DNA of 64,000 bases from an uncultured Gammaproteobacteria bacterium (GTDB taxonomy: Bacteria > Pseudomonadota > Gammaproteobacteria > Steroidobacterales > MnTg04): the NCBI GenBank assembly GCA_964568075.1, contig CAZMOM010000008.1:5430-69429 (forward strand), given 5' to 3'. Under the pieces are notes generated by a model, which had not been told where the DNA came from, searched no databases, and saw nothing but the letters and a program-made list of their open reading frames with translations. A program made the translations under genes and the position numbers. The stretch's first letter is position 1. Each line of letters begins with the position of its first letter. Positions 490 to 37,102 of this stretch are shown here, piece after piece.

Positions 490-1713
490 TTATTTCCCGG
501 TCTTAAACTTGGCGGCCTCATCCGATCCGCCGGTGGCGTCTCCCTCGCTGTATGCGTGTGCACCCGCTCCCGCCAGTTTCCCGCCTTGCACGATCAGATA
601 TTCATCCCTTATCGGTTTACCATCAAACCAGCACTCCAGAATCTCCCTGACACCCGCGGCGTATCGTGCCTGAGCCGAAAGCGACGTTCCGGACGTGTGC
701 GGTGTCATCGCGTGGTGGGGCATACTCCTCCACGGATGGTCCTTGGGCGGTGGCTGCGGGAACCACACGTCGCCAGCATAGCCCGCCAGCTGACCGCTCT
801 CCAGCGCTTTTGCGATGGCGTCCCGATCGCAGATTTTTCCTCGGGCCGTATTGACGATATAGGAACCACGCTTCATCTTGTTGATCAATTTCTCGTCAAA
901 AAGGTGTTCTGTCTCCGGATGAAGCGGGCAGTGAATGCTCAACACGTCGCTAACCTGCGCCAACGATTCCACATCCTCGTGAAAGGTAAGCCCCAGCTCT
1001 TTTTCGACCTCGGCCGATAGCCTGTGGCGATCAGTGTAGTGCAGTTCCACGTCAAACGGCTTCATGCGCTTGAGCACCGCCAATCCAATGCGCCCGGAGG
1101 CGAGGATGCCGATGCTCATTCCTTCGACATCGTACGATCTGGACACTGCGTCGGCTATGTTCCAGCCACCTTTTACTACCCAGCCGTACTGCGGGATGTA
1201 GTCGCGCACAAGCGCCAGGATCATCATGACGGTGTGCTCCGAAACACTGATGCTATTGCAAAAGGTGACCTCGCACACTGTCATATTTCTGTCGATCGCT
1301 GCCTGCAGATCGACATGGTCCGAGCCGATCCCGGCCGTGATCGCCATCTTCAGGTCGGTAGCCTTCGCAATCCGTTCGGCGGTCAGGTACGCGGGCCAAA
1401 ATGGCTGAGAAATCACGATGTCAGCGTCAACCAGTTCCTTCTCGAACACCGAATTCGGGCCGTCCTTGTCGGACATCACGACGAACTTGTGACCGCGATC
1501 TTCAAGAAAACTGCGTAATCCAAGCTCCCCTGTGACACAACCGAGGAGGTCGCCAGGAGAAAAATCGATAGCACTTGGCGAAGGCATCGACTGTCCGTCT
1601 GGATATGCCGTCAGCGTTGGCACGCTATCGCGCGCATATTTCGGTGGGTAGCCTCCTGCAGGATCATCATAAAGTACGCATACAATCTTGCTTTTCTCGT
1701 TAGACCCGCTCAT
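490..1713 (-). CDS. fdh: NAD+-dependent formate dehydrogenase
   Basis: Near full-length resemblance to the Pseudomonas sp. 101-type FDH (KIVCVLYDDP, PFWPAYLT, GIGSDHVDL, GRIGLAVL, C-terminal GGSDEAAKFK). Start moved from 1773 to ATG 1713 (MSGSNEK), which has AGGAGA 7 nt upstream. Confidence 0.93.
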   Translation of the reverse strand: MSGSNEKSKIVCVLYDDPAGGYPPKYARDSVPTLTAYPDGQSMPSPSAIDFSPGDLLGCVTGELGLRSFLEDRGHKFVVMSDKDGPNSVFEKELVDADIVISQPFWPAYLTAERIAKATDLKMAITAGIGSDHVDLQAAIDRNMTVCEVTFCNSISVSEHTVMMILALVRDYIPQYGWVVKGGWNIADAVSRSYDVEGMSIGILASGRIGLAVLKRMKPFDVELHYTDRHRLSAEVEKELGLTFHEDVESLAQVSDVLSIHCPLHPETEHLFDEKLINKMKRGSYIVNTARGKICDRDAIAKALESGQLAGYAGDVWFPQPPPKDHPWRSMPHHAMTPHTSGTSLSAQARYAAGVREILECWFDGKPIRDEYLIVQGGKLAGAGAHAYSEGDATGGSDEAAKFKTGK

Positions 1714-2254
1714 TTTTCGATCTCCTATTGCCATGCCGTAGCCCGGCCATCTAAAGATCCTCCAGGGAGTCATCCGTGGCTGCTCGTAGGAAGCGAGGAC
1801 CCATGGCTATTGCGTCCTGATCTTTAGGGCGGGTTTGGATTTATTGATGTTGCTTGTGACCCAAGTATAAGCTGGATGGTGGGTCTGAGGCGAATTAAAA
1901 TATTAAAAACTATGTCACCGCAATATCCGAGACTTGCCAGCAGAGTCGTGAATGGTGCGTTGACCGAGTCGCGCGTGACCTGGCCATCCTGTTTATCCAT
2001 CTGCTCGTATCGATCGCTCGGCCAGACGATTATCGCCGGGAAAAGTTCCGCCGGTGGTCCATGTCAGCTGCCAGGGGCAGCCTGCAGACTGATTCGCACC
2101 GGGCACAGGCGGCCAGGCCCGAAAAACACGGCCGTGCATTGGTAATTCATCTCGCCTCAGTAGCGATGCCGGATTTGTTGCTATCGGATACGAGTCAGTG
2201 GACAATAAATGATCCTACATACTAACCGGATAATTGATATATAGGATGGCTGAG

Positions 2255-10091: not shown

Positions 10092-10685
10092 CTATAGACT
10101 GCTTAGGTGCTGCGCAACATTGATTAATTCCTGATCGGCGAAAGACGCCAGCAATGATCCTTTTGCAGGCGAATTTTGTCGCGACTTGGATTTGAAATCC
10201 AACATTGTCTTTGCAAGATATTCAGGATGTTGGCCCGCCAGCCGAGGTACGCGGCTATCGCCATCGAATTTACCTAGATGACACGCGATGCATTGCCCCG
10301 CTGTGATGACGGTTATTGCGGATCTGGTCACTTGATCATCGCTCGCATATTCGGTATCTGGCCAGACCTGTTCCGAAAAATACTTTGCGATGAGTTGCAT
10401 TTGATCTTTATCAAGTGCAGAAACGACGGGGCCCATTATCGGATTCGCGCGCAGTCCCGATTTGAAATCATTGAGCTGAACGTAGAGATAGTAGAATTCC
10501 TGTCCTGCCAATATCGGGTATTGTTGTTGAGTCGATGCCCCCTGATCACCGTGACAAACTTGACATGACTTCAGTAGGTCCGCGACGGGGGCATATTCAT
10601 CGCCGGTATCGATGTCTGCCAGCGTAATTGTCGCGCCAGCGAATGTCACAAACAAAAAAAAGTTCAGTAATCTTCCAATCATCAT
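10092..10685 (-). CDS. Dihaem c-type cytochrome (cytochrome c4-like), periplasmic
   Basis: Two CxxCH motifs (CQVCHG, CIACHL) and an N-terminal signal peptide. Lies downstream of the PQQ dehydrogenase, beyond a terminator hairpin. Confidence 0.8.
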   Translation of the reverse strand: MMIGRLLNFFLFVTFAGATITLADIDTGDEYAPVADLLKSCQVCHGDQGASTQQQYPILAGQEFYYLYVQLNDFKSGLRANPIMGPVVSALDKDQMQLIAKYFSEQVWPDTEYASDDQVTRSAITVITAGQCIACHLGKFDGDSRVPRLAGQHPEYLAKTMLDFKSKSRQNSPAKGSLLASFADQELINVAQHLSSL

Positions 10686-10774
10686 AAGCAATCTTGCTTT
10701 TAGAGCGATTCAGGTGATTTGACCGACTTTTATGACGTTCAGTTCCGGCGAATTGTCTACAGATCTGGTACCTG

Positions 10775-10829: not shown

Positions 10830-12545
10830 CTACTTGCCGAGCTTGAACGCTATTATTTCATTGCCACGCTTGTAATCAAGCTGCACATTACCGCCCGCGC
10901 CAACCACAATGTATTGGTTGCCGCCCACGTTATATGAAGCCGGTGGAGCGTTGACGCCGGCATTCGCCTTGTATTGCCACAAGACTTCGCCCGTCTTCGA
11001 ATCGAAGGCTCTAAACCAGCCATTGCCTTCGCCGGTAAACACCAGGCCGCCGCCTGTCGCCAGAATCCCACCGATCATGGGCTGCTCGGTTTTGACCTTC
11101 CACCTGATTTTCCCGGTGTTGTAGTCAACTGCCGTGATATTACCCCATTGCTGTTCTTCAGCAATGACCTTGAATGCACCCCCTAGCCACAGTTTCCCGC
11201 CAGGATACGGCGTGGCCTCAACGTGGTACGTCATCGGCTGATGAAGATTGATCGCATAGGTCAAACCGAGGTTCGGATCGATGGCCATTGGAGACCATTC
11301 GACGCCACCATTAGCGCCAGGCAGCATGCGCTCGCCCTCGGGTGTCGGCAGGACCCAGCGATTTTCCTGAACCACCATGGGTTCGGAGAACCGTATGAGG
11401 CTGCAGTCTTTCGCACGGTGCACGTAGACATAACCTGTCTTGCCGGCGTGCAGCACACCCTTCACTTCGTTGCCCCTGTCGTCCACCACTGTTGTTAATA
11501 CCGGTGGACTCACGGCGTCCAGATCCCATACGTCGTGTGCGATGTATTGAAAATGGCACTTGTACTTACCGGTACTCAGATCAACCGCCACGAGTGAATT
11601 CGTGTACAGATTGTCCCCGGGCCGAATCGCCCCATAAAGGTCGGGAGACGGGTTACCGACAACGAAATACACCGTATTCGTTTCCCGGTCTATCGCCATA
11701 TTCTGCCAGACACCACCTCCCAGCGTTTTGTAGGGGTCACCGAGCTTTTTCAATGCCGCTTTTTCAGCTCGGATATCTCGCAACATATCGCGACCCGTTG
11801 CGTCTTTGGTCGCCCATACGCCGACAGAATTCTCGGCCGTTGTGTGGAACGTCCACAGCTCCTTGCCGGTATCCGCATCATAGGCCTTCACGAAACCGCG
11901 AATTCCGTACTCGCCGCCGTTCGTTCCGATGAGGATTTTTCCGTCAACCGCGGTCGGAGCCATGGTTTCGCTGTAGCCAAGCTCGGGATCGGCAATCTGC
12001 GTTGCCCACGCGAGACGACCTGTTTTCGCATCCAGGGCCACCAGCTTGGCATCCAGCGTACCCATATAGACTTTATCGCCATACGGGAACACACCGCGAT
12101 TGTTTGGTCCGCAGCAATACGTCGTAATCGGACCCATGTCGTGTTTGTAATGCCAGATCTTCTTGCCTGTTTCTGCATTCAATGCGTAGACATGGTTGAA
12201 TGACGTCGTGACATACATGACGCCGTTTACAACGATCGGTGTCGTTTCCAGAGACTCTACGACTTCAGTCTTGAACGTCCAGGCACGCTGCAAGCGGTCG
12301 ACGTTGCCGATGTTAATCTGGCGCGCCGGATAGTAACGCGTCTGATTGTAGTTTCCGTTGGTATGCAGGAAATTATTGGAGTCACCGGCCGCGCGATCCA
12401 ACATATCTTGCGTAACCGTCAGCATATCGCCGTACAACGTGCCGCCGCCGACTTCCTGAGATTGCACCGAACTGATACTGAACAGCGCGATACTCGATCC
12501 AACAAATAAATTTAAAAACAGATTATTGATTCTTTTGTTGCCCAT
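10830..12545 (-). CDS. PQQ-dependent dehydrogenase, methanol/ethanol family (second, divergent copy)
   Basis: Signal peptide, vicinal Cys-Cys ([11 protein letters not shown]), repeated propeller W-motifs, and HDVWDLD around the catalytic Asp. Start set at ATG 12545 (MGNKRINN), 8 nt downstream of GGAGG. The ORF-track extension to 12896 is rejected. Confidence 0.9.
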
Positions 12546-12929
12546 CACTCTCGCCTCCCCGGTGTGAACCTTATTATTTTCCTTCCGACTGGATGCCGAA
12601 CAGATACTGTGCAAATCGTGGTTCGACAATCCGAATTTAGTATACACGGTAATCGCTACAATAAGGCCCTGAACGACTAACCGGTTTCGGGCGCACAATG
12701 CTCGCAATATTTTGCGTATATCATACTGATAAATAAAGGAAAGTTTTCGATTTATCGTCATCCATTCGGGTGCTTTCGTACGACTGCAGGGACGCAGGAG
12801 GTAGGGCAACGCAGGAGCAGTTGCCGAGCAGGAATCCTTTCTGCGGCGCAGACCCGCTGGGCCTGCCCTATCACCTTGACGGAGTATTAGCTTCACCCAG
12901 AATCCGCGATCCCTGGTGAATTACGCAGG

Positions 12930-14648
12930 TTAGGTAGTTGCGGATTCCCCTACACCACCGGACACTGGCAAATGATGTTTATCCGCGACCGGTCGCATAG
13001 CAGCGTTGCTAAGCAGAGCGACGAATAGCAATGCGGCCATTAAATACATTGTTGTATTGTAAAGGCTACTGGTGGGATCGATGGTTCCGGGCGGTGCGAT
13101 TTCCATCAGCTTGGCAATCGTGACGCTGTTTTGTGCGACCAGCGCATCGAGTTGGTCGATACCCGCGCCAAATTTTGATGTAAACACGGTCGGATCGATC
13201 TTCGCCACCAGGTTCGAAATAGCATTGCTGATCGAGGACTCTCGCAAAGAGGTGATCGCCAGCGGCCCCAGCACGCCTGCAGTACTCCAGGCCGTAAGCA
13301 GACGACCGTGAATACCGCCGACATATTTGGTGCCAAATACATCCGCGAGATACGCGGGAATTGTTGCAAAGCCCCCGCCGTACATGGTGAAAATGATCAT
13401 GCTCGCCGCGTAAAAATAGACCAGCCAGACGACGCTGGGGTCTACACTGACACGCTGGGCAGAAAACGGTATCGAGCAATACAGCACAATACCGAGAGCA
13501 AAGAAAATCCAGTAAGTATTACGGCGGCCGATGAAGTCGGACGTGCTCGCCCAGAAGAAACGCCCGATCATATTGAAAACACTGATCATCACCACATAGG
13601 TTGCAGCAAACGCCCCATCGACGACGCTTGGAAGCGTGCTGCCGAATATTTCGCTCATCATGGTCTTTGCAACACCCAACACGCCGATGCCTGCCGTTAC
13701 GTTGAAACACAGGACGATCCACAGCTGATAAAACTGTCTTGTCTTTAGCGCCTGATCGATATCGACATCGCGATCGGTGATCATGCGTTTGGCCGCTTTG
13801 GCGGAATCTGGCGGCGTCCAGCCTTCGGGTTGCCAACCCTCTGCTGGCACGCGGTAAGCAAGAGCGGCAATCATCATCACGACGAAGTAGATAATGCCGA
13901 GCGTAACAAATGTTTGCGCCACGCCGGTGGACCCGGTTCCAACGAGGTAGACGCCCTCTGGGCCTGGCACGATCATGTTGGCGAGGTCGTTCGCACCGAC
14001 AATCACGACTTCTTTCAATTCGCCGGCAATTTCGGCAAAACGTTTGCCCGCTTGCGTGACTAATTGGAGGTCGGCGACCGGGCCAAGGTAGTCAGGCGCA
14101 CGGTAAAACGTTCTGATGAAGAACCCCTTCAACGGTGCGCCGATCATGGCACCACCACCGAAGCCCATGATCGCCATGCCTGCTGCCATCCCGCGCCGGT
14201 CAGGGAACCATCGAATCAGGGTACTGACCGGAGAAACGTAACCCAGCCCGAGACCACAACCGCCGATTACGCCATAGCCAATATAGACTAACCATAACTG
14301 GTGCGTAAAAACACCCAGGCTACCGATCAAATAACCACCACCCCAACAGCAGGCGGCGACGACGCCAACCATGCGCGGCCCAACTCGTTCCAGCCAACGG
14401 CCAGCAAATGCAGCTGCTAATCCCAGGAATACAATGGCTACCGTGAAAATCCAGACAACTTCTTTGAGTGACCAATCGCTGGCCGCACTTGCGACTATCC
14501 CATGTGCTTTGATCAGCGCGGGGTTGTAAATGCTCCACGCGTAAACCGAGCCGATACACAGGTGGATTGCGATAGAAGCCGGGGGGACACGCCAACGATT
14601 GAAGCCGGGTGCTGCGATGATGTGTTCTTTCGATAAGAATCCGACCAT
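12930..14648 (-). CDS. MFS transporter, oxalate/formate antiporter (OFA) family
   Basis: 572 aa and about 12 TM helices. The N-terminus (NRWRVPPASIAIHLCIGSVYAWSIY) is typical of OFA-family MFS proteins. Confidence 0.8.
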   Translation of the reverse strand: MVGFLSKEHIIAAPGFNRWRVPPASIAIHLCIGSVYAWSIYNPALIKAHGIVASAASDWSLKEVVWIFTVAIVFLGLAAAFAGRWLERVGPRMVGVVAACCWGGGYLIGSLGVFTHQLWLVYIGYGVIGGCGLGLGYVSPVSTLIRWFPDRRGMAAGMAIMGFGGGAMIGAPLKGFFIRTFYRAPDYLGPVADLQLVTQAGKRFAEIAGELKEVVIVGANDLANMIVPGPEGVYLVGTGSTGVAQTFVTLGIIYFVVMMIAALAYRVPAEGWQPEGWTPPDSAKAAKRMITDRDVDIDQALKTRQFYQLWIVLCFNVTAGIGVLGVAKTMMSEIFGSTLPSVVDGAFAATYVVMISVFNMIGRFFWASTSDFIGRRNTYWIFFALGIVLYCSIPFSAQRVSVDPSVVWLVYFYAASMIIFTMYGGGFATIPAYLADVFGTKYVGGIHGRLLTAWSTAGVLGPLAITSLRESSISNAISNLVAKIDPTVFTSKFGAGIDQLDALVAQNSVTIAKLMEIAPPGTIDPTSSLYNTTMYLMAALLFVALLSNAAMRPVADKHHLPVSGGVGESATT

Positions 14649-14689: not shown

Positions 14690-15565
14690 TTAATCGTCAT
14701 CAGGCGAGGCCGCCACATCGGTGTCTGGCACAAAATCGAGCAAAGGCACGTGGTACTCAGCGAAGATCGCTGCCATCGGCACAGCGGTCTTGTGCATTAA
14801 CTCTTCCAGGACCCGTTTGCGTTCACCGTCGCCGTACCTCACACCCGCGGCGATCGCGAAATCGAATCGAATGCCGGGTTCTGATTCCAGGGAAATCACG
14901 ACCAGTTCCACGCCTTTTGCCCGGCTGGCGAAAAAGCCCGCCATCGGTCCCCAAATGATGGCTGCGTCGAGTCTTCCACCAACGAGCTCCTTCTCAATTA
15001 TTTCACCGGGGTAGGCTCCGGGATCGCCAGACATCGCGAGAAAACCGACCAGCTGCTCGCCCATGCCATGGCGTGCCAGCCATTTGGTTCCGGGCGTGGG
15101 GGTAAACGCACCGATTCTAAGACGATCGCGAATCTCGGGATTCAAGTTGATGAAGTCTTCGCCGCTCGCCACGTCATCCAGATTGCCCCCCTTCGCGTAG
15201 ACCAGCGCATACGTTGAGCGGTAGTAAGGCTTCGTCGTCAACAGGCGGTCATAACCGGCCGCTACCCCCATAACGATATCGCACTTGTACCCCTCTCCAG
15301 ACTGACTCGGCGCTTTGAGTGTGTTGCGGATAAATCCGCGCCGTTGCGGAAACCACGTGTACTCAATTGGCAGCCCAAGTTCATTTGCCCACAATTGCGC
15401 AATCTTGTTTTCAAACCCATCCCGATTTTTGGCCGATAAAGGTAGATTGTTTGGATCGGCGCAAACTCGAAACGCAGAAGCACCTTCAGCCAGCGCGCCA
15501 GCAGACAGACCCAAACCGATCAACAGAATTATGCCTCGTCGCATCAGGGAAGTTATCGCCAACAT
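14690..15565 (-). CDS. xoxJ: XoxJ/MxaJ-type periplasmic binding protein (quinoprotein dehydrogenase-associated SBP)
   Basis: Signal peptide plus FRVCADPNNLPLS and YTWFPQRRGFIRNTL motifs. Lies immediately downstream of xoxG. Confidence 0.85.
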   Translation of the reverse strand: MLAITSLMRRGIILLIGLGLSAGALAEGASAFRVCADPNNLPLSAKNRDGFENKIAQLWANELGLPIEYTWFPQRRGFIRNTLKAPSQSGEGYKCDIVMGVAAGYDRLLTTKPYYRSTYALVYAKGGNLDDVASGEDFINLNPEIRDRLRIGAFTPTPGTKWLARHGMGEQLVGFLAMSGDPGAYPGEIIEKELVGGRLDAAIIWGPMAGFFASRAKGVELVVISLESEPGIRFDFAIAAGVRYGDGERKRVLEELMHKTAVPMAAIFAEYHVPLLDFVPDTDVAASPDDD

Positions 15566-15575
15566 CTTATATTAC

Positions 15576-16148
15576 CTATGGTTTCTTCTTCGGGCGACCA
15601 GGCGGCAGAGCGCCGTCGGATCGAGCCTTGAGATAAGCGAACAATTCCTTGTATCGTTTACTGACATTTGGATTATCTTTCCAGGGCGGCATCACGCCGA
15701 CCGGGCCCGTATATCCGTTCGCCATGCGATCCACAAAAATATCAAACTCGAGCTCTTGCATACGGTCTACCAGGCTCGGTGCGAACGTGCTGCCCAACGC
15801 ATCCTGTGCATGGCAACGGTGGCAAAATCCATGAAACGTTCGCCACCCAATATAGGTGTCACCATCGACGTGACAAAACGCCTCACCTGCATCATTCACC
15901 TGTCCGCATTCGACAGAGTAAAGCGCGGAGGTGCTCGGCGTCGATTCTTTGTGCTCATCCCCGGCCTGAGCAACGACCGCAGCTTTTTCATTGCCGACTG
16001 ATTCTGGAGCTGGCCCTGCTGCGTTTGCCGATGCTTGATTCTGCGTGTTTTCCGCAGCGCAGGCAATTTGCGAGAACGCAACGGCGCTAAGAATCATGAA
16101 TGCAACCCCATGTGCGGGTGCTCCTCGATAGTTAACGCGAATTCCCAT
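15576..16148 (-). CDS. xoxG: XoxG-type cytochrome c (cytochrome cL family, methanol-metabolism related)
   Basis: Single CxxCH (CHRCHAQD), a signal peptide and a basic C-terminal tail. Lies between xoxF and xoxJ. Start set at ATG 16148 (MGIRVNY). Confidence 0.85.
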   Translation of the reverse strand: MGIRVNYRGAPAHGVAFMILSAVAFSQIACAAENTQNQASANAAGPAPESVGNEKAAVVAQAGDEHKESTPSTSALYSVECGQVNDAGEAFCHVDGDTYIGWRTFHGFCHRCHAQDALGSTFAPSLVDRMQELEFDIFVDRMANGYTGPVGVMPPWKDNPNVSKRYKELFAYLKARSDGALPPGRPKKKP

Positions 16149-16170
16149 GGTTCCACCGAAGTCGTGTGTG

Positions 16171-16205
16171 AAAAAAACCCCCGGCCACAATATGTGGCCG
16201 GGGGT
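16171..16205 (-). terminator. Strong intrinsic terminator or attenuator hairpin between xoxF and xoxG
   Basis: On the minus strand, ACCCCCGGCCACA-TAT-TGTGGCCGGGGGT (13-bp perfect stem) is followed by T7. Confidence 0.7.
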
Positions 16206-16239: not shown

Positions 16240-18051
16240 TTAATCAGGCAATACGAACACCGTCAATACACCACCCAACTGCGTGTATTGGTCTAGCGCC
16301 TTGTACGCACCGACCGCGCCAAGCCCGTCGGTGTCACCCGTCAGTCCTGCCGCCATGCCGATGCCGGCCCAGCCCCCGATACCGGAGAGTACGCCGATGT
16401 ACTGCTTGCCTTTAAACTTCCACGTGTTCACGTTGCCGATAATGCCAGACGGTGTCTTGAACTTATACAGTTCTTTGCCGGTTCTGGCATCGACCGCTTT
16501 GAGGTATCCCTCTAGCGTACCGTAGAACACAATGTCTCCCGCCGTCGCCAATGCGCCGCTCCAGACAGAGAACATTTCAGAGTTTGACCAAACGATTTTG
16601 CCTTTCGCGGCATCCCAGGCAATGAAGTTGCCCAGATTAGTGGTGCCGTCGCCAGTGACCCGACCTGCCGGGAACATGCTCAGCGTCGCACCTACATAAG
16701 GCTGGCCAGCGACATATTCGACCTCAAACGGCTCGTAGTCCATGCACACATGGTTTGTGGGTACATAGAACAGGCCGGTTTTTGGTGAAAATGCAGCCGG
16801 TTGCTGATCCTTACTGCCCAATGCCGCCGGGCACACGTTTTTCGTGTTGGTGTCTTGACCAGTCTGGTGCGTGCTGTATTTGGCAACAACTTGCGGGCGG
16901 CCAGTCTTCATGTCGACATGGGTTGCCCAGTTCACCGCCGGGTCGTACTTCTCCGCTACCAGCAGTTCGCCCGTTACACGGTCAAGCGTGTAACCGAAAC
17001 CGTTGCGGTCAAAGTGCACCAGGACCTTACGATTCTTACCTTTGATCTTGATGTCGGCAAGGATCATCTCGTTGATGCCATCGTAGTCCCACTCATCGTG
17101 AGGCGTCATCTGGTAGACCCACTTGGCCATGCCCGAGTCGAGATCGCGGGCAAAGATCGTCATGGACCACCGGTTGTCGCCGGGTCGCACCACGGGATTC
17201 CACGTGCTCGGATTGCCAGTCCCGTAATAGACCAGGTTGAGCTGTGGATCGTAGCTGTACCAGCCCCAGGTCGTCCCGCCACCGATTTTCCACTGATCGC
17301 CTTTCCACGTATTGGTGCCGGAATTCTTGCCAACCGGCTTGCCAAGATGGGTGGTCTTGCGGGGATCGATAAGCGTCTGATCGTCCGGACCGACGCTATA
17401 GCCTTTCCACGCCAGGCTGCCGTCCTTGGTATAGTATGCCGCCAGGAAACCCTGCACACCAAACTCACCGCCACTGATGCCGGTCAGCACTTTGTCTTTG
17501 ATAACGACCGGCGCGTTGGTATTGGTACTGCCCTTTGTCGGATCACCATTCTTGATGCGCCAGATCATCTTGCCGGTTTTGGCATTCAGGGCCACCAGAT
17601 GCGTGTCGGCCTGCTGCAAAAAGATTTTCCCGTCCGCATAGGCAAGACCACGGTACACCGTGTCGCAGCACATTACCGGAATCGTATCTGGATTTTGTTT
17701 TGGCTCGTAGCGCCAGATGATGGTCTGGTCGTTAAGATTGATCGCAAAAACCTTGTTCGGGAATGGTGTGTGTATATACAGCGTGTCACCAACAACCAAT
17801 GGTCCGCCTTCGTGACCCCGCAGAACTCCGGTTGAGAATGTCCACGCCACCTTCAAATCGCCAACATTCTTGCTGTTGATCTGATCCAGTTTGCTGTAGC
17901 GGGTGCCGGCGTAATCGCCGCCCCAGATAGCCCAATTGTCCGGGTTATCCATTAGCTTCATCAGCTCACTGTTTGCGCTCGATGTGGCAGGCACCATTAG
18001 AGCCAGTGCAACGCCGGCGATCGCAATTAATCCAATTATTCGTTTTATCAT
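16240..18051 (-). CDS. xoxF: XoxF-type PQQ methanol dehydrogenase (lanthanide-type signature)
   Basis: Signal peptide, [18 protein letters not shown], vicinal Cys ([10 protein letters not shown]), and HDEWDYDG (D-Y-D as in XoxF, against D-Y-A in MxaF). Start at ATG 18051 (MIKRII), 7 nt downstream of GGAGG. Confidence 0.95.
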
Positions 18052-18169
18052 CTCCCCACCTCCATTGATGGTTTTTATGCCTTGCATGCCAGCGCGGAAT
18101 TCACCGCATACCGCTGCAAGTAACCCCTCCGCCTTATTTTTGTAAGGTCGGCCTTGTCCTAACCAAAAC

Positions 18170-18574
18170 TTAACCGCGCTCATTGTCCTTATCGGCGGTA
18201 TCCGTTCTGAATCCCACGAAGCACGATTTTTTCGCGACCGCGGTGATATTACTTATTTTCTTGACGAGAAGGCTCGCACGATCCGGGTCCCGAAAAACCC
18301 CGCCTCGTTCTCCAGGCGTTGTGCGCAATTGAGTAAACACCTCCCCTTCGACGTATTCGTCGTATGCGATCTGCTCAGCTATTTTGTCTATGGCGCATAC
18401 GCACGAATACAAGTTTTCATATTTTTGACCACCATGGGAATCCATGCAACGCAAAACATATTCCACTCGAGCCTGAGTCGGAAAATCATTCGCATGAGCA
18501 GGAGAAGTCAAACACAGCATGCACAGAGTCGATGTTACAGCCACCCAATGCACGATTTCGCCTATTCCCACCAA
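18170..18574 (-). CDS. Hypothetical small secreted protein directly upstream of xoxF
   Basis: Signal peptide ending AHA-ND. Mature part is about 105 aa with conserved-looking Cys residues. Same strand as xoxF. Exact start (TTG or GTG) is uncertain. Confidence 0.5.
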
Positions 18575-19110
18575 GGTCTTTTTGTAGTCGTTCGTCGAAT
18601 GCTAGCAGAGTGCGAGTAGGGTGTCAGCCCACAGTTTCCACGCCACAGCTGTTTACGCTGGTTCAAATCAAGAAAAAGTTGAAAAATCAATATGAATTGC
18701 GATTGTCTTCAAGGAGTTTCATGACCGAAAGTTTAACATAAGACAGTCGTTTAGCGGAGTGGAGAGCCCTGCTTTGGCGATCGATGCGGCGGCAAAGACG
18801 GTCATGGTCGGTCGGAATAAGGCTATGCGACTGCTCTGCGGCGTGATCTTCACCCGTGGACAGGTCGTTTTTGAGGGCAATATCGGTGCGGGTCAGGAAC
18901 ACTCTTCTGCGTGCGGTCAACCGCAAGTCCGGTGACGGTTATGGGCGAATCGAAGGCGCCATCGACGTTATGCCGAGCGATCCAGTGTTTTACACGTATG
19001 CTGATGCAGATGGAAAAGCGCAGGTAGCACCGGGACCACTACTTACAAAAACGGCGAAGCACTTGCAACATTTTTATCAACGAAGTTAATCGCGCTCAAC
19101 CGCAAAGTTC

Positions 19111-19947
19111 CTACCGGCTGGCCGGAGCGATCTGCAAGGTCTGACTGAATCGGAGATCCTTCGTATCAGTGACTTCTGCAGTGAGCTGGCCCTCACTTTC
19201 CGGCACAAAGAAGAATTTGAAACTGGGGTTTTCGCTAATACCGAAGCCGGTCTCGGCGGAAAAAATTTCCTCGCCGTCGAAGCTCACTTTTACATGCCGA
19301 ACGAAATGGGCGGGTGCATACATATGCGTGACCTGATTCATTTGCAATCCGCTAAGATTCGGGTGGCTGATCATCAGCTGAGCCGCTGTCGGTCGGGCCA
19401 GATGGGTCACGCTATTCGTTTTCAATTTGATTTTCCCGAGCCGTGCCATCGCCGCATCAAGATCGGAGGCAGCAGGCGCAGAGCAGCCGCCCGTCGCTTT
19501 GATGAAGCGCCGGCTCATAAATAGCTCACCATCACTGGTTTCCGCGATCGCACGTATTGGGCTGTAGGCGTTGACCCTGACCCGAAACGCCAGGTCGGCT
19601 CGCCCGCTTTTTGGTGTGAAGTGAAACGTGCCGACCAACGGCCCGGGATTCCTGTCGATGAACAAGTGAATGGTTTTGATATACCGCTCGTTCGTCTGCG
19701 GTATCTGCGCCGTGATCGATATGGGCACGATGGCCGCATCTTCCGCACGATTTGGTGCATCCAGCACGATGACGTCATCCGATTGGGTTATCGGGCGATT
19801 CTCGAAATAAGCGTGTTTCAAGCCCCCGGTCCAAACCATGTCCTCTTCGACCGTTGTCGCCTCACCCACGACAGGAGCAAGCATCGTCAACACGATGGCG
19901 CACCCACGTAGGCTGGCGAACGCACTCCAACGCGTATTATTCATCAT
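19111..19947 (-). CDS. Quinoprotein dehydrogenase-associated SoxY-SoxZ fusion carrier protein
   Basis: Signal peptide. SoxY-like half ends in KATGGCSAP (GGC carrier-cysteine motif). SoxZ-like half contains ISHPNLSGLQMNQ. The start ATG lies 4 nt after the upstream MBL stop codon. Confidence 0.8.
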   Translation of the reverse strand: MMNNTRWSAFASLRGCAIVLTMLAPVVGEATTVEEDMVWTGGLKHAYFENRPITQSDDVIVLDAPNRAEDAAIVPISITAQIPQTNERYIKTIHLFIDRNPGPLVGTFHFTPKSGRADLAFRVRVNAYSPIRAIAETSDGELFMSRRFIKATGGCSAPAASDLDAAMARLGKIKLKTNSVTHLARPTAAQLMISHPNLSGLQMNQVTHMYAPAHFVRHVKVSFDGEEIFSAETGFGISENPSFKFFFVPESEGQLTAEVTDTKDLRFSQTLQIAPASR

Positions 19948-19951
19948 CCTG

Positions 19952-20920
19952 TCAATCCTCCCATTCCAGCTCGGCGTATGCGGCCCCCACATTGCGCCGC
20001 TGGTAGCGGTCAAACAATAACCACTCTTCTGATCGGGGCTGGCCAATTTTATCCTGCGCCGAGGCTAAATCACCACCGCTCGCAATCCAGCCGCGGACGT
20101 TCTCCCGTAGCCCGGTCAGATACCGCAGCGTCGGTCCGGCGGCCGCCGGCCAAAGTGCGCGCGCCGGGCCATGGCCCGGTACGACATAAGCCAACGATTC
20201 GCCGGACATTGCCTCGAGTTCGCCGATCCAGCCGTTGATGCTGCCGTCAATGACCGGCAAATGCTCGAGAAAAACCAGGTCGCCGAGAAACGCTGTCTTC
20301 GTTTGCTCGTCGACGATACTGATATCGTGGTCCGTATGGGCGCTTTTGTGAGCCCGAACGGTCAAGACCCTGCCCCCAATATCCAATTGGATCACGCGTG
20401 TCACCGTGCGTTCCGGGAAAACGAAAATCGATTCGTCCAGCACCCTGCTTTCGTACGCGGACGCACGCTCAAGATAAGTATCGCCCCGCATCGCCAACGC
20501 GCGTGGCAGTTTGGCGTGACCGATGAATTCCACCCCGGGGCGGTGAAACGCTAAATTGCCCAGCAGATGATCGGGATGGACATGCGTATTGATCACATAA
20601 CACACAGGTCGCTCGGTCACCTCGCGGATCGCACAATCCAATGCTTGCCCTTCCGCGGGACTACCGCCGGTATCGACTACCGCAACACAGCGATCGCCGA
20701 CGACAAAACCAATGTTCGCAATCTCGTCACCTTCAAATACGACTGCAGTATGCCCGGGCCGTACGTAAACACCTGCAGCGACTTGCACAACCGCGGTTGA
20801 TTGCGAGCAGGACTCCGGCGTTTGCACGGGGACCGCGCGGCAGGAAAGCGCCCAAAGAGCACAAGTCAGTTGCAACATTACCGACCTTCTGACACTGTAT
20901 TTGCGTTGATGGCTTGGCAT
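19952..20920 (-). CDS. MBL-fold zinc hydrolase (quinoprotein relay system metallohydrolase type), exported
   Basis: HVHPDHLLGN (HxHxDH), downstream His/Asp ligands (HKSAHTDHD, VPGHG), and an N-terminal RR-containing signal (KYSVRRSVMLQLTCALWAL). Start could be 20920 or 20878. Confidence 0.8.
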   Translation of the reverse strand: MPSHQRKYSVRRSVMLQLTCALWALSCRAVPVQTPESCSQSTAVVQVAAGVYVRPGHTAVVFEGDEIANIGFVVGDRCVAVVDTGGSPAEGQALDCAIREVTERPVCYVINTHVHPDHLLGNLAFHRPGVEFIGHAKLPRALAMRGDTYLERASAYESRVLDESIFVFPERTVTRVIQLDIGGRVLTVRAHKSAHTDHDISIVDEQTKTAFLGDLVFLEHLPVIDGSINGWIGELEAMSGESLAYVVPGHGPARALWPAAAGPTLRYLTGLRENVRGWIASGGDLASAQDKIGQPRSEEWLLFDRYQRRNVGAAYAELEWED

Positions 20921-21227: not shown

Positions 21228-24480
<3,253 letters not shown>

Positions 24481-31580: not shown

Positions 31581-32627
31581 ATGAAGCAATTCCAAACACT
31601 CGAAAACTACCTGCAAACACAAGTAGCGGACGATGACATTCGATCGGCCGTTGCCACAACCATTCTTTGCATCGCCGCAGCAGCCATAAGAATCAAAAAC
31701 CTCGTGGCTCGAGGCCCACTGGCCGGCCGGTTGGATGCGGCCCGCGGCGACAACACGGACGGTGATGCCCAGAAAGAGCTGGATTTGATCGCCAACGATT
31801 ATATTATTGAAGCTCTGCAAAGCGCACCGATCGCATACCTGGTTTCGGAAGAACTGGATCAACCGGTGCTACTACATAAAGCTGCGCCGTTGTTAGTGAC
31901 AATTGACCCGCTGGACGGGTCCTCCAATATCGAGACCAACGCCGCCGTCGGCACGATCTTCTCGATATTGCCAGCAGTCGGTTCTGAAAAAGACCTGACC
32001 GACGATGCCGTTCTGCAGGCCGGTGTCAATCAACTGGCCGCCGGCTACTGCATCTATGGACCGCAAACTTCGCTCGTACTGACACTCGGCGCCGGTACGC
32101 ACATTTTTACACTGGACCCGGTGCAGGGTGAGTTTCATTTGACCACGCCCAATGCACAGATCGCGGAAACGACACGGGAGTTTGCGATCAATGTGTCGAA
32201 TTTCCGACATTGGGACCAACACATTCGCGCCTACATCGATGACTGCCTGGATGGTGAGGACGGCTTGCGAAAGAGCAACTACAACATGCGCTGGGTTGCA
32301 TCGCTGGTCGCAGAGTGTCATCGAATTCTGTCCCGTGGCGGCATCTTCCTGTATCCCGGCGACGCCCGCAAAGGCTATGCACAGGGTCGATTACGTCTTC
32401 TTTACGAATGCAACCCGGTAGCGTTCCTGATCGAACAGGCCGGCGGCGGCGCGACAACCGGACACCAGCGAATTCTGGATCTGAAACCCGAAAAAGTACA
32501 TCAGCGGGCACCGATGATCTTTGGCTCGCGCCGCGAGATTAGACGCGTTGAGCGCTACTACGCCGAATGTGACAGGACGGGCGAGAGATCGCCGTTGTTC
32601 AACAAGCGTGGACTGTTTCGCGTCTGA
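31581..32627 (+). CDS. cbbF: Class 1 fructose-1,6-bisphosphatase (Calvin-cycle FBPase/SBPase)
   Basis: DPLDGSSNIETNAAVGTIFSI, MRWVASLVAECHRIL, GGIFLYPGD; GAGG upstream of the ATG. Confidence 0.92.
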   Translation: MKQFQTLENYLQTQVADDDIRSAVATTILCIAAAAIRIKNLVARGPLAGRLDAARGDNTDGDAQKELDLIANDYIIEALQSAPIAYLVSEELDQPVLLHKAAPLLVTIDPLDGSSNIETNAAVGTIFSILPAVGSEKDLTDDAVLQAGVNQLAAGYCIYGPQTSLVLTLGAGTHIFTLDPVQGEFHLTTPNAQIAETTREFAINVSNFRHWDQHIRAYIDDCLDGEDGLRKSNYNMRWVASLVAECHRILSRGGIFLYPGDARKGYAQGRLRLLYECNPVAFLIEQAGGGATTGHQRILDLKPEKVHQRAPMIFGSRREIRRVERYYAECDRTGERSPLFNKRGLFRV

Positions 32628-32653
32628 AGGCGAAAGGACCGGGGTATAAAAAC

Positions 32654-33529
32654 ATGTCAATCGCTCATCCCATCATTTCAGTCACAGGCTCATCGGGCGC
32701 CGGTACCACATCGGTCAAGCTCACATTTGATCAGATATTCCGGCGCGAGGGCGTCAGCGCCGCTTTTGTCGAGGGTGATGCGTTCCATCGCTACGACCGT
32801 GCCGAGATGAAACAGGTTATGTCCGACGAGGCCGCCAAAGGCAACAATCACTTCAGCCACTTCGGCCCCGAGGCAAATCTGTTTGACAAACTCGAGGCGG
32901 TATTTCGCGATTTCGGTGAGACCGGTAGCGGAAAAACGCGGCACTACGTGCACGATGCCGACGAGGTCGAGCTCTATGGCGCGGATCCTGGAACGTTCAC
33001 AGACTGGGAGGATACGCCGGAAGGCGCCGATCTCCTCTTCTATGAAGGCTTGCATGGCGCGGTGGTCACTGACGCAGTCGATGTCGCGCAGTATGCCGAT
33101 GTCAAGATCGGCATCGTGCCGGTCATCAATCTTGAGTGGATTCAGAAACTGCACCGGGACAAAACGGAACGCGGCTATTCGTACGAGGCCGTTATGGACA
33201 CCATTCTGCGCCGCATGCCCGACTACATTCACTTCATAACCCCGCAGTTCAGTCGGACCGATATCAATTTTCAGCGTATTCCGACTGTCGATACGTCGAA
33301 TCCGGAGATCGCGCGCTTGATTCCGACACCGGACGAATCGATGGTTGTGATTCGCTTTCGGAATCCACACGGCATCGACTTTCCCTATCTACTGGCCATG
33401 ATCCACGACAGCTTCATGTCTCGTTCCAATTCCATCGTCATTCCCGGCAATAAACTGGATCTCGCGCTGCAACTGATTCTGACGCCGATGATCATGCAGC
33501 TCATCGAACGAAAAAGACGCGCGGTCTAA
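32654..33529 (+). CDS. cbbP: Phosphoribulokinase
   Basis: HPIISVTGSSGAGTTSV P-loop, EGDAFHRYDR, NLEWIQKLHRDK; about 290 aa, the bacterial PRK type. Confidence 0.93.
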   Translation: MSIAHPIISVTGSSGAGTTSVKLTFDQIFRREGVSAAFVEGDAFHRYDRAEMKQVMSDEAAKGNNHFSHFGPEANLFDKLEAVFRDFGETGSGKTRHYVHDADEVELYGADPGTFTDWEDTPEGADLLFYEGLHGAVVTDAVDVAQYADVKIGIVPVINLEWIQKLHRDKTERGYSYEAVMDTILRRMPDYIHFITPQFSRTDINFQRIPTVDTSNPEIARLIPTPDESMVVIRFRNPHGIDFPYLLAMIHDSFMSRSNSIVIPGNKLDLALQLILTPMIMQLIERKRRAV

Positions 33530-33544
33530 CAAGAGGAATTTTTC

Positions 33545-35572
33545 ATGAATGCAATTGCACAGGAATCCATGGCCGGCAGCGCCGTGTCCCAAAAGGCCAT
33601 GGCAAACGCGATTCGTTTCCTGGCCGCGGATGCGGTGCAACGTGCGAATTCAGGCCATCCCGGCATGCCAATGGGCATGGCGGATGTCGCGACGGTCCTG
33701 TTTACACGATTCCTCAAGTTCAATCCTGATGATCCGGACTGGCAGGATCGCGACCGGTTTGTACTTTCAGCCGGTCATGGGTCAATGCTGTTGTATTCGC
33801 TGTTGCATCTCACCGGATATCGGGCGGTGTCTATGGAAGAGATCAAGAACTTTCGCCAGATTGGCAGCGTAACGGCGGGACACCCCGAGTTCGGTCACGC
33901 GCCGGGCATCGAAACCACCACTGGTCCGCTGGGGCAAGGCATTACAACCGCAGTGGGCATGGCGCTGGCCGAGCGGATGCAGCAGGCACGATTCGGGGAC
34001 GACCTCGTCGACCATTACACTTATGTCATTGTCGGCGATGGTTGCCTGATGGAGGGCATCAGTCATGAGGCCATTTCGCTTGCCGGTCATCTTCGTCTTT
34101 CGCGGCTGATCGTTTTGTGGGACGACAACTCCATCAGTATCGACGGCTCGACCGACCTGTCTGTTTCGGACGACCAGTTAGCCCGATTCAAGGCGTCGGG
34201 CTGGCAGGTTGCTTCTGTCGACGGGCACGACCATGCAGCTATCGCCAATGCAATCGAAAATGCCCGCAAAGATAACCGCCCGTCATTCATTGCCTGCAGC
34301 ACGGTGATCGGATTTGGTGCGCCGAATAAAGCCGGTACAGCCGCCACTCATGGGGCTCCGCTCGGTGAAGATGAACTGGCAGCGAGCCGGGTGAATCTAA
34401 ACTGGCCGTATGCCCCGTTCGCCATACCGGATGATATCCAATTCGCGTGGCGCGCAGCCGGCACACGCAGTGCAGCTAGCTATGGTGATTGGCAGGAGCG
34501 TCTTGCTACCGCCAACGAGGAAAAGCGCCGTGAATTTCTCCGCACCACTGCAGGTGATTTGCCTGCCGGTTGGCAGGACGACATCAACGCATTCAAAAAG
34601 CGGCTTGCCGAAGAGCAGCCGACAATGGCAACCCGTAAAGCCTCGGGTGAAACGCTGAATATCCTGACTGCATCCATACCAGAATTGATCGGCGGATCCG
34701 CCGACCTAACAGGATCAGTCAACACCAAAACACCGCATACGGACCCGGTCACGGCGAACGACTTCAGCGGACGTTACCTGCATTACGGCGTTCGCGAGCA
34801 CGCCATGGCAGCGGTGATGAACGGCATCGCTTTGCACGGAGGCTTCATTCCCTACGGTGGCACGTTCCTGATCTTCGTCGATTATATGCGCGCTGCAATG
34901 CGCCTGTCGGCACTCACGCGACAGCGCGTCATCTATGTCTTGACTCACGATTCCATAGGCCTCGGTGAAGACGGACCGACGCATCAACCGGTAGAAACCC
35001 TGGCCATGTTGCGGGCGACGCCTAACTTCAATGTTTACCGGCCGGCAGATGCGACGGAAACCGCGGAATGCTGGGCGCTGGCATTACAGGACAGGAACAC
35101 GCCCTCGGGCCTCGCCCTGAGCCGACAGGGCTTACCCGCGCTGCGCACTGTGTATACCGATGATAACCTCTGCGCCCGCGGCGCTTACGTTCTGGCGGAG
35201 ACCGACAACGGTGAGCGCGAGGTAACCATCATGGCGACAGGCTCCGAAGTCAGCATCGCGATGGCTGCCAGAGACATCCTGCAAAGCGAAGGTATCGGCA
35301 CGGCTGTCGTTTCCATGCCGTGCTGGGAGCTATTCGAGAAACAGGATGCCACCTACAAGGACGAGGTGCTCGGGCCGGGGACCGTCGCCATTGGCCTCGA
35401 AGCGGCGGTCGGCTTCGGCTGGGACCGGTACATAGGCACTCGCGGCTGCTTTGTCGGCATGCAGGGTTTCGGCGCCTCGGCACCAGCAGCTGACCTATAC
35501 GAATACTTCGGCATAACAGCGGCTGCTGTTGTCGAGGCGGCAAAGACTTACCTGACAAGCGAAGACCGATAA
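33545..35572 (+). CDS. cbbT: Transketolase
   Basis: [71 protein letters not shown]. Confidence 0.95.
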
Positions 35573-35722
35573 CGAGAGGAAATCGACACGGCGGGACGTC
35601 AGTCAAAGAGCAAAGTTATTTCGTTGCCGCAGATGGTCGAACGGTACAAAAGCGGTGATTTAGAGCCGCAAACCGACCAAAGCCGGGTAGCGGCAGCATA
35701 GATTGAAAGAGGAGACAAGACG

Positions 35723-37102
35723 ATGGATCAATCCGATCGATATGCAGACCTGTCACTAGGTGAACAGGATCTGATTGCAGGCGGACAACATGTGTTGTGC
35801 GCCTACATTATGAAACCGAAAGCCGGTTACGAGTATCTAGCGACCGCTGCTCACTTTGCCGCAGAATCTTCAACCGGCACAAATGTGTCCGTCTCGACAA
35901 CGGATGATTTTACGCGCGGGGTCGATGCGCTCGTTTACGAAATCGACGAAGCGAACGAAGTCACGAAGATTGCCTACCCGGTGGAGTTGTTCGATCGGAA
36001 TATCATTGACGGACGAGCCATGATCGCCTCGTTCCTCACATTGACCATTGGCAACAACCAGGGCATGGGAGATGTCGAATACGCGAAGATGCACGACTTC
36101 TATATGCCGCATGACTTTCTGCGTCTTTTTGACGGACCATCGACGACGATATCCGATCTGTGGCGCGTGCTGGGCCGCCCGGTGGTTGACGGTGGCTTCA
36201 TCGTCGGGACCATAGTCAAACCCAAACTCGGTCTGCGGCCGGAACCGTTCGCGGAGGCGGCGCACCAGTTCTGGCTGGGCGGTGACTTTATCAAGAACGA
36301 TGAGCCGCAGGGCAACCAGCTCTTTGCACCGTTGAAAAAGACGATTTCGCTGGTTGCCGACGCAATGCGCCGGGCACAAGACGAGACCGGAGAAGCAAAA
36401 CTGTTTTCAGCAAACATCACCGCAGACGATCATTACGAAATGGTGGCCCGCGGTGAGTACATTCTCGAAACGTTTGCAGAAAACGCCGATCATGTGGCGT
36501 TCCTTGTTGACGGTTACGTCGCGGGCCCCGCAGCCATTACCACAGCACGGCGACGCTTCCCGAAGCAGTATCTGCACTATCATCGCGCTGGCCACGGCGC
36601 GGTAACGTCACCACAGTCAATGCGGGGATACACGGCATTCGTGCTCTCGAAGATGGCTCGCTTGCAGGGTGCTTCCGGTATTCATACCGGCACCATGAGC
36701 TTCGGCAAGATGGAAGGCGAAGCCAGCGACACCGACATGGCCTACATGATTCAAAGAGACAGCGCGGATGGTCCGTTCTATCACCAGGAATGGCTTGGTA
36801 TGAACCCAACCACACCGATCATCTCCGGCGGCATGAATGCGCTGCGCATGCCTGGATTCTTCACCAACCTTGGTCATTCGAATCTTATATTGACCGCCGG
36901 TGGTGGCAGCTATGGACATATCGACGGTCCCGCGGCCGGCGCCCGGTCCCTGCGACAGGCTGAACAGTGCTGGAAGGAAGGCGCCGATCCTGTTGCTTTC
37001 GCCAAAGAACATCATGAATTCGCCCGCGCTTTCGAGAGTTTCCCGAGCGATGCGGATCAGCTATTCCCGAATTGGCGTCAACAGCTGGGGCACGCCGCGT
37101 AG
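35723..37102 (+). CDS. cbbM: RuBisCO form II large subunit
   Basis: [12 protein letters not shown].., [49 protein letters not shown]; 459 aa with no small-subunit gene alongside. Confidence 0.95.

Follow-up and report, generated by a model that had tools for sequence, protein, structure and literature searches.

The 64,000-nucleotide stretch of DNA analysed here (the window), from a contig of an uncultured gammaproteobacterium, encodes three predicted exported proteins next to xoxF, the gene for a lanthanide-dependent methanol dehydrogenase that uses pyrroloquinoline quinone (PQQ). They are a metallo-β-lactamase (MBL)-fold hydrolase, a SoxY-SoxZ fusion carrier with a single arm cysteine, and a small protein with four cysteines. 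Carrier, hydrolase and small protein travel together with xoxF, xoxG and xoxJ across Alpha-, Beta- and Gammaproteobacteria. We tentatively propose, at somewhat less than an even chance, that the three genes make up a periplasmic accessory module of lanthanide-dependent XoxF that would run a load-and-hydrolyse cycle on one cysteine. The MBL and SoxYZ-like pair beside PQQ dehydrogenases is of a known kind, named computationally and discussed in 2024-2026. What is new here is the family of the small protein, the evidence from gene fusions, a moxR deletion scar and the assignment of phage 'soxYZ' genes; no new mechanism is established.

The genes lie in a row on the minus strand (Table 1) in the order MBL, SoxY-SoxZ fusion, a 536-nt spacer, the small open reading frame (ORF), 118 nt, xoxF, a cytochrome gene, a MoxJ-like gene and a major facilitator superfamily (MFS) transporter gene. 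An earlier note on this DNA had placed the three genes at these coordinates on the xoxF strand, with an HVHPDH motif in the hydrolase and KATGGCSAP in the carrier, and each was found where expected. Export of the window proteins was judged by eye from their N-terminal sequences. The longest ORF of the MBL gene reaches 20977, translation probably starts at the ATG at 20920 and the stop codon occupies 19952-19954. The product matches TIGR04559 at 349 bits (E 2e-104; NCBIfam cut-off 280, with the cut-offs below likewise in bits) and the sister model TIGR04558 at only 150 bits (cut-off 300), and Pfam Lactamase_B matches it as well. A complete set of metal ligands is present (Asp; HxHxDH, encoded at 20584-20567 as HVHPDH; His; Asp; His). 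These residues, D102, H132, H134, D136, H137, H214, D233 and H269 in the numbering of the 341-aa ORF, are each kept in 62 of 64 homologues, which points to catalysis by the stand-alone protein. The homologues share no conserved cysteine, and an ExEWE motif is conserved at the C-terminal end. The closest relatives of solved structure are 8D2Z, an uncharacterised MBL protein (3e-16) on which a literature search found nothing, chlorothalonil dehalogenase (6e-8) and the alkylsulfatase SdsA1 (5e-6).

The carrier gene begins with an ATG at 19947, exactly 4 nt ('cagg') past the MBL stop codon, and ends with its own stop at 19111. The two genes are translationally coupled. The spacing agrees with the earlier note, as does its reading of the product as a SoxY-SoxZ fusion with an internal arm cysteine. 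The protein matches TIGR04557 at 278.9 bits (E 2.4e-83; cut-off 140) and falls below the cut-offs of the true families (SoxY, 79 versus 125 bits; SoxZ, 58 versus 76 bits). A single polypeptide holds a Pfam SoxY domain at residues 79-188 and then a SoxZ domain at residues 218-303 (long-ORF numbering), with the GGC arm internal. In alignment this GGC, whose Cys155 is encoded at 19485-19483, falls on the GGC at the C-terminus of Thermus SoxY. Of 81 carrier homologues, 79 have the arm motif [SA]GGC[SA]A, and 62 have a single cysteine beyond residue 45. An AlphaFold2 (AF2) model of the carrier (predicted local distance difference test, pLDDT, 70) has two β-sandwich domains, with the arm (residues 149-161) as a low-confidence loop followed by a short helix. 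A superposition of its SoxY domain and Paracoccus SoxY (2OX5 chain Y) gave a TM-score of 0.80.

Directly upstream of xoxF stands the third gene, and the earlier note's cysteine-containing protein of about 105 aa was confirmed there, with four cysteines; its ORF ends 118 nt before the likely xoxF start. Translation probably begins at the GTG at 18553. The N-terminus resembles a signal peptide (..LTSPAHA followed by NDFPTQ), and the mature protein would run from about 18490 (NDFPTQ...), giving about 105 aa. No NCBIfam family matched this protein, and Pfam gave one sub-threshold match, to DUF7208 (E 0.0078, 15.6 versus 27 bits). The ORF is nonetheless not a chance one, since a sequence search returned 645 homologues and a profile search at least 6,172, every one of them named 'hypothetical'. 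Invariant in the family are N1, D2, P4, T5, C15, C30, C32, D35 and C90 (mature numbering), with a mature N-terminus of the form N-D-[FY]-P-T and the cysteine pattern C, CxC, C. The AF2 model (pLDDT 81) has four helices, and a Foldseek comparison of it with the PDB gave no match with E below 1 (best E 1.0). A redox-active CxC motif was considered and is disfavoured, as the model puts both cysteines within a helix, where they should face different neighbouring helices. This arrangement fits two structural disulfides better, and the four cysteines probably form such a pair. Judged by its homologues and their gene neighbourhoods, the small protein represents a large, unannotated, syntenic family and a third member of the set.

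About 1 kb downstream of the carrier gene comes the dehydrogenase gene, which is on the same strand. Its ORF spans 16240-18183, with the likely start (MIKRII) at 18051, and the product matches TIGR03075 at 764 bits (cut-off 480). In the PDB it matches the XoxF structures 6DAM (1017 bits) and 6OC5 (956 bits) best, with MxaF structures at no more than 659 bits. The protein carries WDYDG, with the extra lanthanide-coordinating Asp (DYD), and a vicinal cysteine pair in PVMCCDTV.

To place the module in a wider sample, a scan with the carrier alignment was run with one genome per species. It yielded 579 relatives, and the best 80 of these 579 loci, from Gamma-, Beta- and Alphaproteobacteria, were analysed; gene presence was scored by tblastn with the window proteins. 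Among the 80 loci an MBL gene was present in 62, the small protein in 47, a XoxF-like protein in 40, XoxJ in 35 and XoxG in 29. A full-length subset of 50 loci had at least 9 kb on both sides of the carrier gene. Within this subset, 41 loci had the MBL gene, 34 the small protein and 29 a PQQ dehydrogenase, with 26 of the 29 at least 60% identical to the window XoxF; the MBL, small protein and XoxF-like genes all occurred together in 24 of the 50. Unbiased clustering of the neighbouring ORFs gave the same ranking of partners. Several loci have MBL-SoxYZ with no PQQ dehydrogenase within 10 kb.

The arrangement of the genes is conserved as well. In 60 of 63 cases the carrier gene is directly preceded on its own strand by the MBL gene, and the two are separated by small gaps or overlap in most of 61 loci. 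At 47 of the 80 loci the small gene maps no further than about 10 kb from the carrier gene, usually as its immediate neighbour, directly downstream and mostly convergent (opposite strand, 34; same strand, 9). Furthermore, a reciprocal test that started from three distant homologues of the small protein arrived at an identical neighbourhood each time. In those islands the small gene is convergent with SoxYZ-MBL, and the genes for XoxF, a cytochrome, a binding protein and a rhodanese-like protein diverge from the MBL gene. The earlier note's proposed link between the module and xoxF or other PQQ dehydrogenases is thus borne out by the 29 of 50 full-length loci, by the reciprocal test and by a single operon described next.

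Rare natural gene fusions bind these partners more tightly. A profile search of 1.8 billion cluster representatives returned 327 members of the carrier family (E at most 1e-30). Two of them, P0366 and P0455, join the carrier to a SoxH-related MBL domain. A third, P0409 (locus L089, 5003-6415), joins it to a PQQ-associated CXXCW rhodanese-like domain with the motif CHERCW (TIGR03865, 164 bits; cut-off 128), and its gene directly follows a stand-alone MBL gene. Fusions of the P0455 type and of the P0409 type each occur on independent contigs. On one contig (L090) the MBL fusion (P0455/P0510, 4501-6171) ends a single same-strand operon of xoxF (70% identical), xoxG, xoxJ, a 237-aa ORF, the small protein gene and the SoxYZ-MBL fusion. 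No other computational evidence speaks as strongly as these fusions for joint action of carrier, MBL protein and CXXCW protein and for their place in the XoxF system. Stand-alone CXXCW rhodanese-like proteins of family TIGR03865 are encoded in 34 of the 80 loci, as scored by tblastn with two family members. In one alphaproteobacterial island that has the module, the CXXCW gene follows xoxJ (L081, 13917-14471).

That carrier and hydrolase serve XoxF as an accessory system at all is fairly likely, more so than any particular chemistry. If the three proteins form an accessory module of XoxF, loop Cys155 of the carrier would take up a covalent adduct, and the MBL protein would strip it off and regenerate the free thiol, by analogy with the action of SoxB on SoxYZ. 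The adduct would likelier be a sulfane, a persulfide or an S-sulfonate than a carbon-based group. Sulfur might be taken up from, or kept off, two sites in XoxF, its PQQ quinone and its strained Cys-Cys disulfide, and the module would in this way keep XoxF active amid sulfide, sulfite, thiosulfate or thiols. We consider a sulfur-based adduct, with the module guarding XoxF against sulfur species, to be possible and on balance doubtful. It is favoured because every recurrent partner of recognisable fold is a thiol or sulfur protein, namely those of the SoxY/Z, SoxH and CXXCW rhodanese types and, according to published work, also thioredoxin-like and YeeE-like proteins. In addition, XoxF has an evident sulfur-sensitive site in the strained Cys-Cys disulfide beside its PQQ.

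Several published observations are relevant to this proposal. A role of SoxH in releasing sulfate from SoxY has been proposed for Sulfurimonas (as cited in PMC11237559), and coupling of tetrathionate to glutathione has been reported for a XoxF homologue, ThdT (Pyne 2018, as cited in bioRxiv 10.1101/683490). Thiosulfate inhibits growth of Hyphomicrobium on methanol, and the homologous operon of Methylorubrum extorquens AM1 has a thioredoxin-like gene (PMC12997753). The gene soxH adjoins xoxF5 in Roseobacter strain La 6 and in Rhodobacter (PMC5934484). Osvatic et al. (2024) described soxYZ fusions with a PQQ dehydrogenase and soxH, or with fdhAB and xoxF, and favoured a role in carbon metabolism (PMC11237559). 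Li et al. (2024) found the same ensemble in Hyphomicrobium beside YeeE-like genes that were unresponsive to thiosulfate (PMC11582611). A review from 2026 on the ped cluster treats PP_2677 (SoxYZ-like) and PP_2678 (SoxH-like) as uncharacterised and conserved alongside lanthanide PQQ dehydrogenases; the roles it suggests are to mature the vicinal disulfide or to shield PQQ from sulfur nucleophiles (PMC12997753). The earlier note's remark that these families have names and no biochemistry agrees with three of these papers (PMC12997753, PMC11237559, PMC11582611). Our literature search found no biochemical study of the module genes, and the searchable literature held no lanthanide- or methanol-dependent expression data for them.

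A number of observations weigh against an accessory module of XoxF that works by loading and hydrolysis. The MBL domains fused to the carrier have a degenerate metal motif, H[SA]RAEF in place of HxHxDH, which means that hydrolysis may not be conserved everywhere and suggests that the MBL domain in these fusions is not a canonical hydrolase. The CXXCW protein was absent from the window and its nearest relatives in the tblastn search with two family members. In Methyloglobulus and Methyloversatilis a lone carrier gene sits among unrelated genes, far from MBL or xoxF genes. Transposon mutants of P. putida PP_2677 and PP_2678, tested in media that lacked lanthanides, had minimal phenotypes (PMC12997753), and in H. 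denitrificans the genes adjacent to a fused Sox(YZ) protein and SoxH were not regulated by thiosulfate (PMC11582611). Finally, the context in the window is otherwise one of carbon metabolism, with formaldehyde and formate dehydrogenases, a formate-family transporter and Calvin cycle genes.

A bolder form of the proposal, which we think unlikely, is that XoxF depends on a dedicated, protein-borne periplasmic thiol cofactor system made up of the carrier cysteine, the hydrolase, the four-helix protein and often the CXXCW protein. Such a system would carry a one-carbon (C1) thioester or repair sulfur damage to the Cys-Cys pair and PQQ, and the carrier would limit methanol oxidation, hence the copies of its gene in phages.

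The alternatives differ mainly in what they ask of the carrier cysteine. A thiol-disulfide relay, proposed in PMC12997753, would form or maintain the vicinal Cys-Cys disulfide of lanthanide PQQ dehydrogenases; there would be no hydrolysable adduct, and the MBL protein would serve as a binding or scaffold partner. The vicinal pair in the window XoxF, the CXXCW and thioredoxin-like partners in other genomes and the degenerate metal site of the carrier-fused MBL domain are all consistent with such a relay. In contrast, the stand-alone MBL protein keeps all its ligands in nearly every homologue, and many XoxF organisms have no module beside xoxF. MxaF-type enzymes share the disulfide, yet we know of no mxa cluster with a SoxYZ-like gene. 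On this evidence we regard the disulfide relay as improbable.

The mechanism put forward in the earlier note was a formaldehyde relay. The carrier cysteine would trap formaldehyde or another aldehyde as a hemithioacetal, XoxF would oxidise it to a thioester, and the MBL protein would hydrolyse this to formate. Some MBL-fold enzymes, for example glyoxalase II, are thioesterases. The module is also tied to enzymes that release aldehydes into the periplasm, a transporter of the formate/oxalate family is encoded directly past xoxJ, and the window encodes a nicotinamide adenine dinucleotide (NAD)-dependent formate dehydrogenase. Lucinid symbionts cluster the fusion with fdhAB and xoxF, where a role in carbon metabolism was favoured (PMC11237559). 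Nevertheless, the assignment of the hydrolase to the glyoxalase II type did not hold, since glyoxalase II is a marginal relative (2XF4 alone, E 0.0088, with no significant stretch) and 8D2Z, chlorothalonil dehalogenase and the alkylsulfatases are closer. Thiol-formaldehyde adducts dissociate in the millimolar range, which would make a stoichiometric protein thiol a poor trap. A tethered loop cysteine would have doubtful steric access to the buried active site of XoxF, judging from published structures, and the fusion variants have lost the metal motif. The relay leaves no role for the thiol and sulfur partners, including the CXXCW rhodanese-like protein and its fusion to the carrier. Moreover, the module also accompanies broad-substrate dehydrogenases of the ped type that do not serve methanol, and the window already encodes a cytoplasmic glutathione route, 2.4 kb away, as well as the formate dehydrogenase. 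We found no support for the proposed sequence of steps and consider it distinctly improbable.

Delivery of a cofactor, with the carrier cysteine holding PQQ as a reversible thiohemiketal or aiding insertion of lanthanide or PQQ into apo-XoxF, has the divergent PqqU-like TonB receptor gene in its favour, although the receptor scores below the model cut-off. Related islands carry lanmodulin, ExbBD/TonB, a PedC-type ABC transporter and pqq genes, and between the module and xoxF there is what is left of a moxR/vWA operon. Against this, no SoxY-type carrier or SoxH-type MBL protein is known to bind PQQ or a metal cofactor, cofactor delivery does not explain why a hydrolase is needed, and the sequences give no hint of an oxygen-rich lanthanide site, so that this explanation appears very unlikely.

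Ordinary dissimilatory sulfur oxidation of the Sox type by genes that merely lie near xoxF could appeal to the homology of both proteins to SoxY, SoxZ and SoxH and to Methylophaga thiooxydans, which oxidises thiosulfate by an unknown enzyme and has two soxYZ fusions (PMC6548844), but it is scarcely credible and largely refuted: the carrier scores too low for the true SoxY and SoxZ models, it has an internal arm in place of a C-terminal GGCGG, SoxAX, SoxB and SoxCD were not found among the roughly 48 larger window ORFs scanned with NCBIfam, the synteny with xoxFGJ extends over three proteobacterial classes, and members of the family are present in bacteria that reportedly do not oxidise thiosulfate (PMC11237559).

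The spacer between the carrier and small genes (18575-19110) had been described in the earlier note as a non-coding gap. It holds a fragment of a moxR-like gene on the opposite strand (Table 1). In the closest relatives (L001-L005) an opposite-strand operon of about 5.5 kb, encoding a MoxR-type ATPase, a DUF58-like protein and vWA-type proteins, lies between the two genes. Since the operon is intact there and only a fragment is left here, the gap represents a deletion scar. The operon in between also means that MBL-SoxYZ cannot be co-transcribed with xoxF in the nearest relatives, which rules out a single transcript of MBL-SoxYZ and xoxF as a general rule. MBL-SoxYZ is not an obligate part of an xoxF operon. 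In most other loci the small gene is convergent with the carrier gene, and xoxF is divergent or downstream.

Carrier genes also occur in phages. Three T4-like phage contigs from IMG/VR (L086, 5641-6735; L087; L088), which encode a UvsX-like recombinase and a DnaB-like helicase, each have a SoxYZ fusion 45-46% identical to the window carrier. The L086 protein (46% identical) matches TIGR04557 at 240 bits (cut-off 140) and falls short of the thresholds of the true SoxY and SoxZ models. The phage contigs hold the carrier alone, with neither the MBL gene nor the small protein gene. From the L086 match, the viral 'soxYZ' auxiliary genes of epipelagic T4-like phages (Roux et al. 2016) are here assigned to the family of the window carrier, TIGR04557. 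They have been interpreted as boosting sulfur oxidation (Roux et al. 2016; bioRxiv 10.1101/053090). On the family match, these phage genes may instead belong to the quinoprotein-associated system, and their reassignment could shift the reading from sulfur oxidation to the oxidation of methanol or other alcohols.

Downstream of xoxF, a 14-bp GC-rich, terminator-like hairpin with a T-run lies at 16206-16176 (minus strand), directly past the xoxF stop codon, where it overlaps the start of the longest xoxG ORF. The hairpin is likely an attenuator that separates high xoxF expression from that of xoxGJ, and the true xoxG start is probably downstream of it. Apart from this strong hairpin, simple promoter and terminator scans gave counts no higher than in shuffled sequence. 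The MFS transporter gene directly 3' of xoxJ has the same position in L001, which suggests exchange of formate or another small acid tied to periplasmic methanol oxidation.

Additional genes were seen in related islands. An exported, unannotated protein of about 204 aa (e.g. L070, 6246-6860) was found by tblastn in 25 of the 80 loci and matches no family, and the 237-aa ORF between xoxJ and the small gene in L090 (3425-4138) likewise encodes an exported, unannotated protein that has no family match. In one alphaproteobacterial island a lanmodulin gene (L083, 5205-5609; 177 bits, cut-off 135) lies 3 kb from the small gene, and the island has ExbBD/TonB genes too.

Beyond the module, the gene content of the window reads as an island of C1 oxidation and autotrophy. 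A second alcohol dehydrogenase of the lanthanide type may be encoded by the second PQQ dehydrogenase gene, whose likely true start (MGNKRINN) is some 117 codons inside the ORF; a dihaem cytochrome gene follows it. The PqqU-like receptor gene, which has the same position in L001-L003, could encode an importer of PQQ or of a lanthanide chelate. The window also encodes a PQQ-associated β-propeller protein and a pentapeptide-repeat protein, and the NCBIfam scan of its larger ORFs found no pqq biosynthesis genes. With Calvin cycle genes and the NAD formate dehydrogenase beside xoxF, the source organism is probably an autotrophic methylotroph. The closest relatives are uncultured Gammaproteobacteria and metagenome-assembled genomes of Woeseiaceae.

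Table 1. Features of the window, with coordinates, strand and basis of assignment.
Feature	Position	Strand	Basis and remarks
NAD formate dehydrogenase	490-1773	-	Window scan
Dihaem c-type cytochrome, after second PQQ dehydrogenase	10092-10691	-	
Second PQQ dehydrogenase	10830-12896	-	TIGR03075, 450 bits, just below cut-off (480); VWDLD (Asp-x-Asp), vicinal YCCG
MFS transporter, oxalate/formate-lactate family	12930-14648	-	NF049980, 327 bits (cut-off 320); OFA-family models too
xoxJ-like (MoxJ-like) periplasmic binding protein	14690-15565	-	TIGR03871, 254 bits (cut-off 212)
xoxG-like c-type cytochrome	15576-16190	-	TIGR03874, 76 bits (below cut-off 161); Pfam Cytochrome_CBB3, 26.5 versus 27, just sub-threshold
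xoxF, lanthanide-dependent PQQ methanol dehydrogenase, XoxF5 type	16240-18051	-	TIGR03075, PDB matches, motifs
Small predicted exported four-helix, four-Cys protein	18170-18574	-	Unannotated family; homologue search, AF2 model
moxR-like AAA ATPase fragment (pseudogene)	18856-19089	+	62% identity over 61 aa to intact MoxR of L001, E 2e-23
SoxY-SoxZ fusion carrier, single arm Cys155 in KATGGCSAP	19111-19947	-	TIGR04557, Pfam SoxY and SoxZ
MBL-fold binuclear metallohydrolase, predicted exported, SoxH-related, 'quinoprotein relay system zinc metallohydrolase 2'	19952-20920	-	TIGR04559, Pfam Lactamase_B
TonB-dependent receptor, PqqU-like	21228-23333	+	442 bits versus cut-off 1200; divergent from MBL gene
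Glutathione-dependent formaldehyde dehydrogenase (FlhA-type)	23374-24480		TIGR02818, 704 bits
Calvin cycle genes: fructose-bisphosphatase (FBPase), phosphoribulokinase, transketolase, form II RuBisCO	31581-37102	+	

XoxF enzymes are the most widespread methanol dehydrogenases and the basis of lanthanide-dependent methylotrophy in soils, sediments and the ocean. An accessory set stands beside XoxF in three proteobacterial classes, and the literature of 2024-2026 treats its role as an open question. A carrier that holds a C1 or sulfur adduct would add a new layer to periplasmic C1 chemistry, and this could matter for engineering XoxF or PedH in production strains.

Among known systems, the P. 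putida KT2440 ped cluster (PP_2677/PP_2678) and META1p1703-1705 of M. extorquens AM1 also stand beside lanthanide PQQ alcohol dehydrogenases, a c-type cytochrome and a MoxJ-like protein (PMC12997753; PMC12875217). Their orthology to the window genes is read only from shared family names. The window differs from both in that the partner is a XoxF5 enzyme within an autotrophic C1 island, a small third protein is present and no CXXCW protein of the PP_2666 type is encoded. The route of Gfa, FlhA/AdhI and FghA, from hemithioacetal to thioester to hydrolysis, is the chemistry invoked in the formaldehyde relay. This glutathione pathway differs in being cytoplasmic, in relying on a small-molecule thiol at millimolar concentration and in having a serine hydrolase, FghA, as its thioesterase. 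The MBL fold and HxHxDH motif of the window protein are found in glyoxalase II too, whereas in sequence glyoxalase II is only a marginal relative.

SoxH of Paracoccus pantotrophus and of other sox clusters is similarly an MBL-fold protein of the periplasm whose gene accompanies that of a SoxY-type carrier, and the models TIGR04558 and TIGR04559 are named after it ('SoxH_rel'). SoxH is dispensable for thiosulfate oxidation. In contrast to SoxH, the hydrolase described here is found in the context of PQQ dehydrogenases and not of sox genes. Canonical SoxYZ with SoxB has in common with the module the SoxY and SoxZ folds, the Gly-Gly-Cys arm and a dedicated metallohydrolase encoded with the carrier. 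In the window, however, a single fused protein takes the place of SoxY and SoxZ, its arm forms an internal loop, the hydrolase is of the MBL fold, not the SoxB fold, and SoxAX and SoxCD were not found among the larger ORFs. The likeness to SoxYZ and SoxB provides the working analogy for the accessory module of XoxF, in which an adduct would be loaded onto the carrier cysteine and then hydrolysed off.

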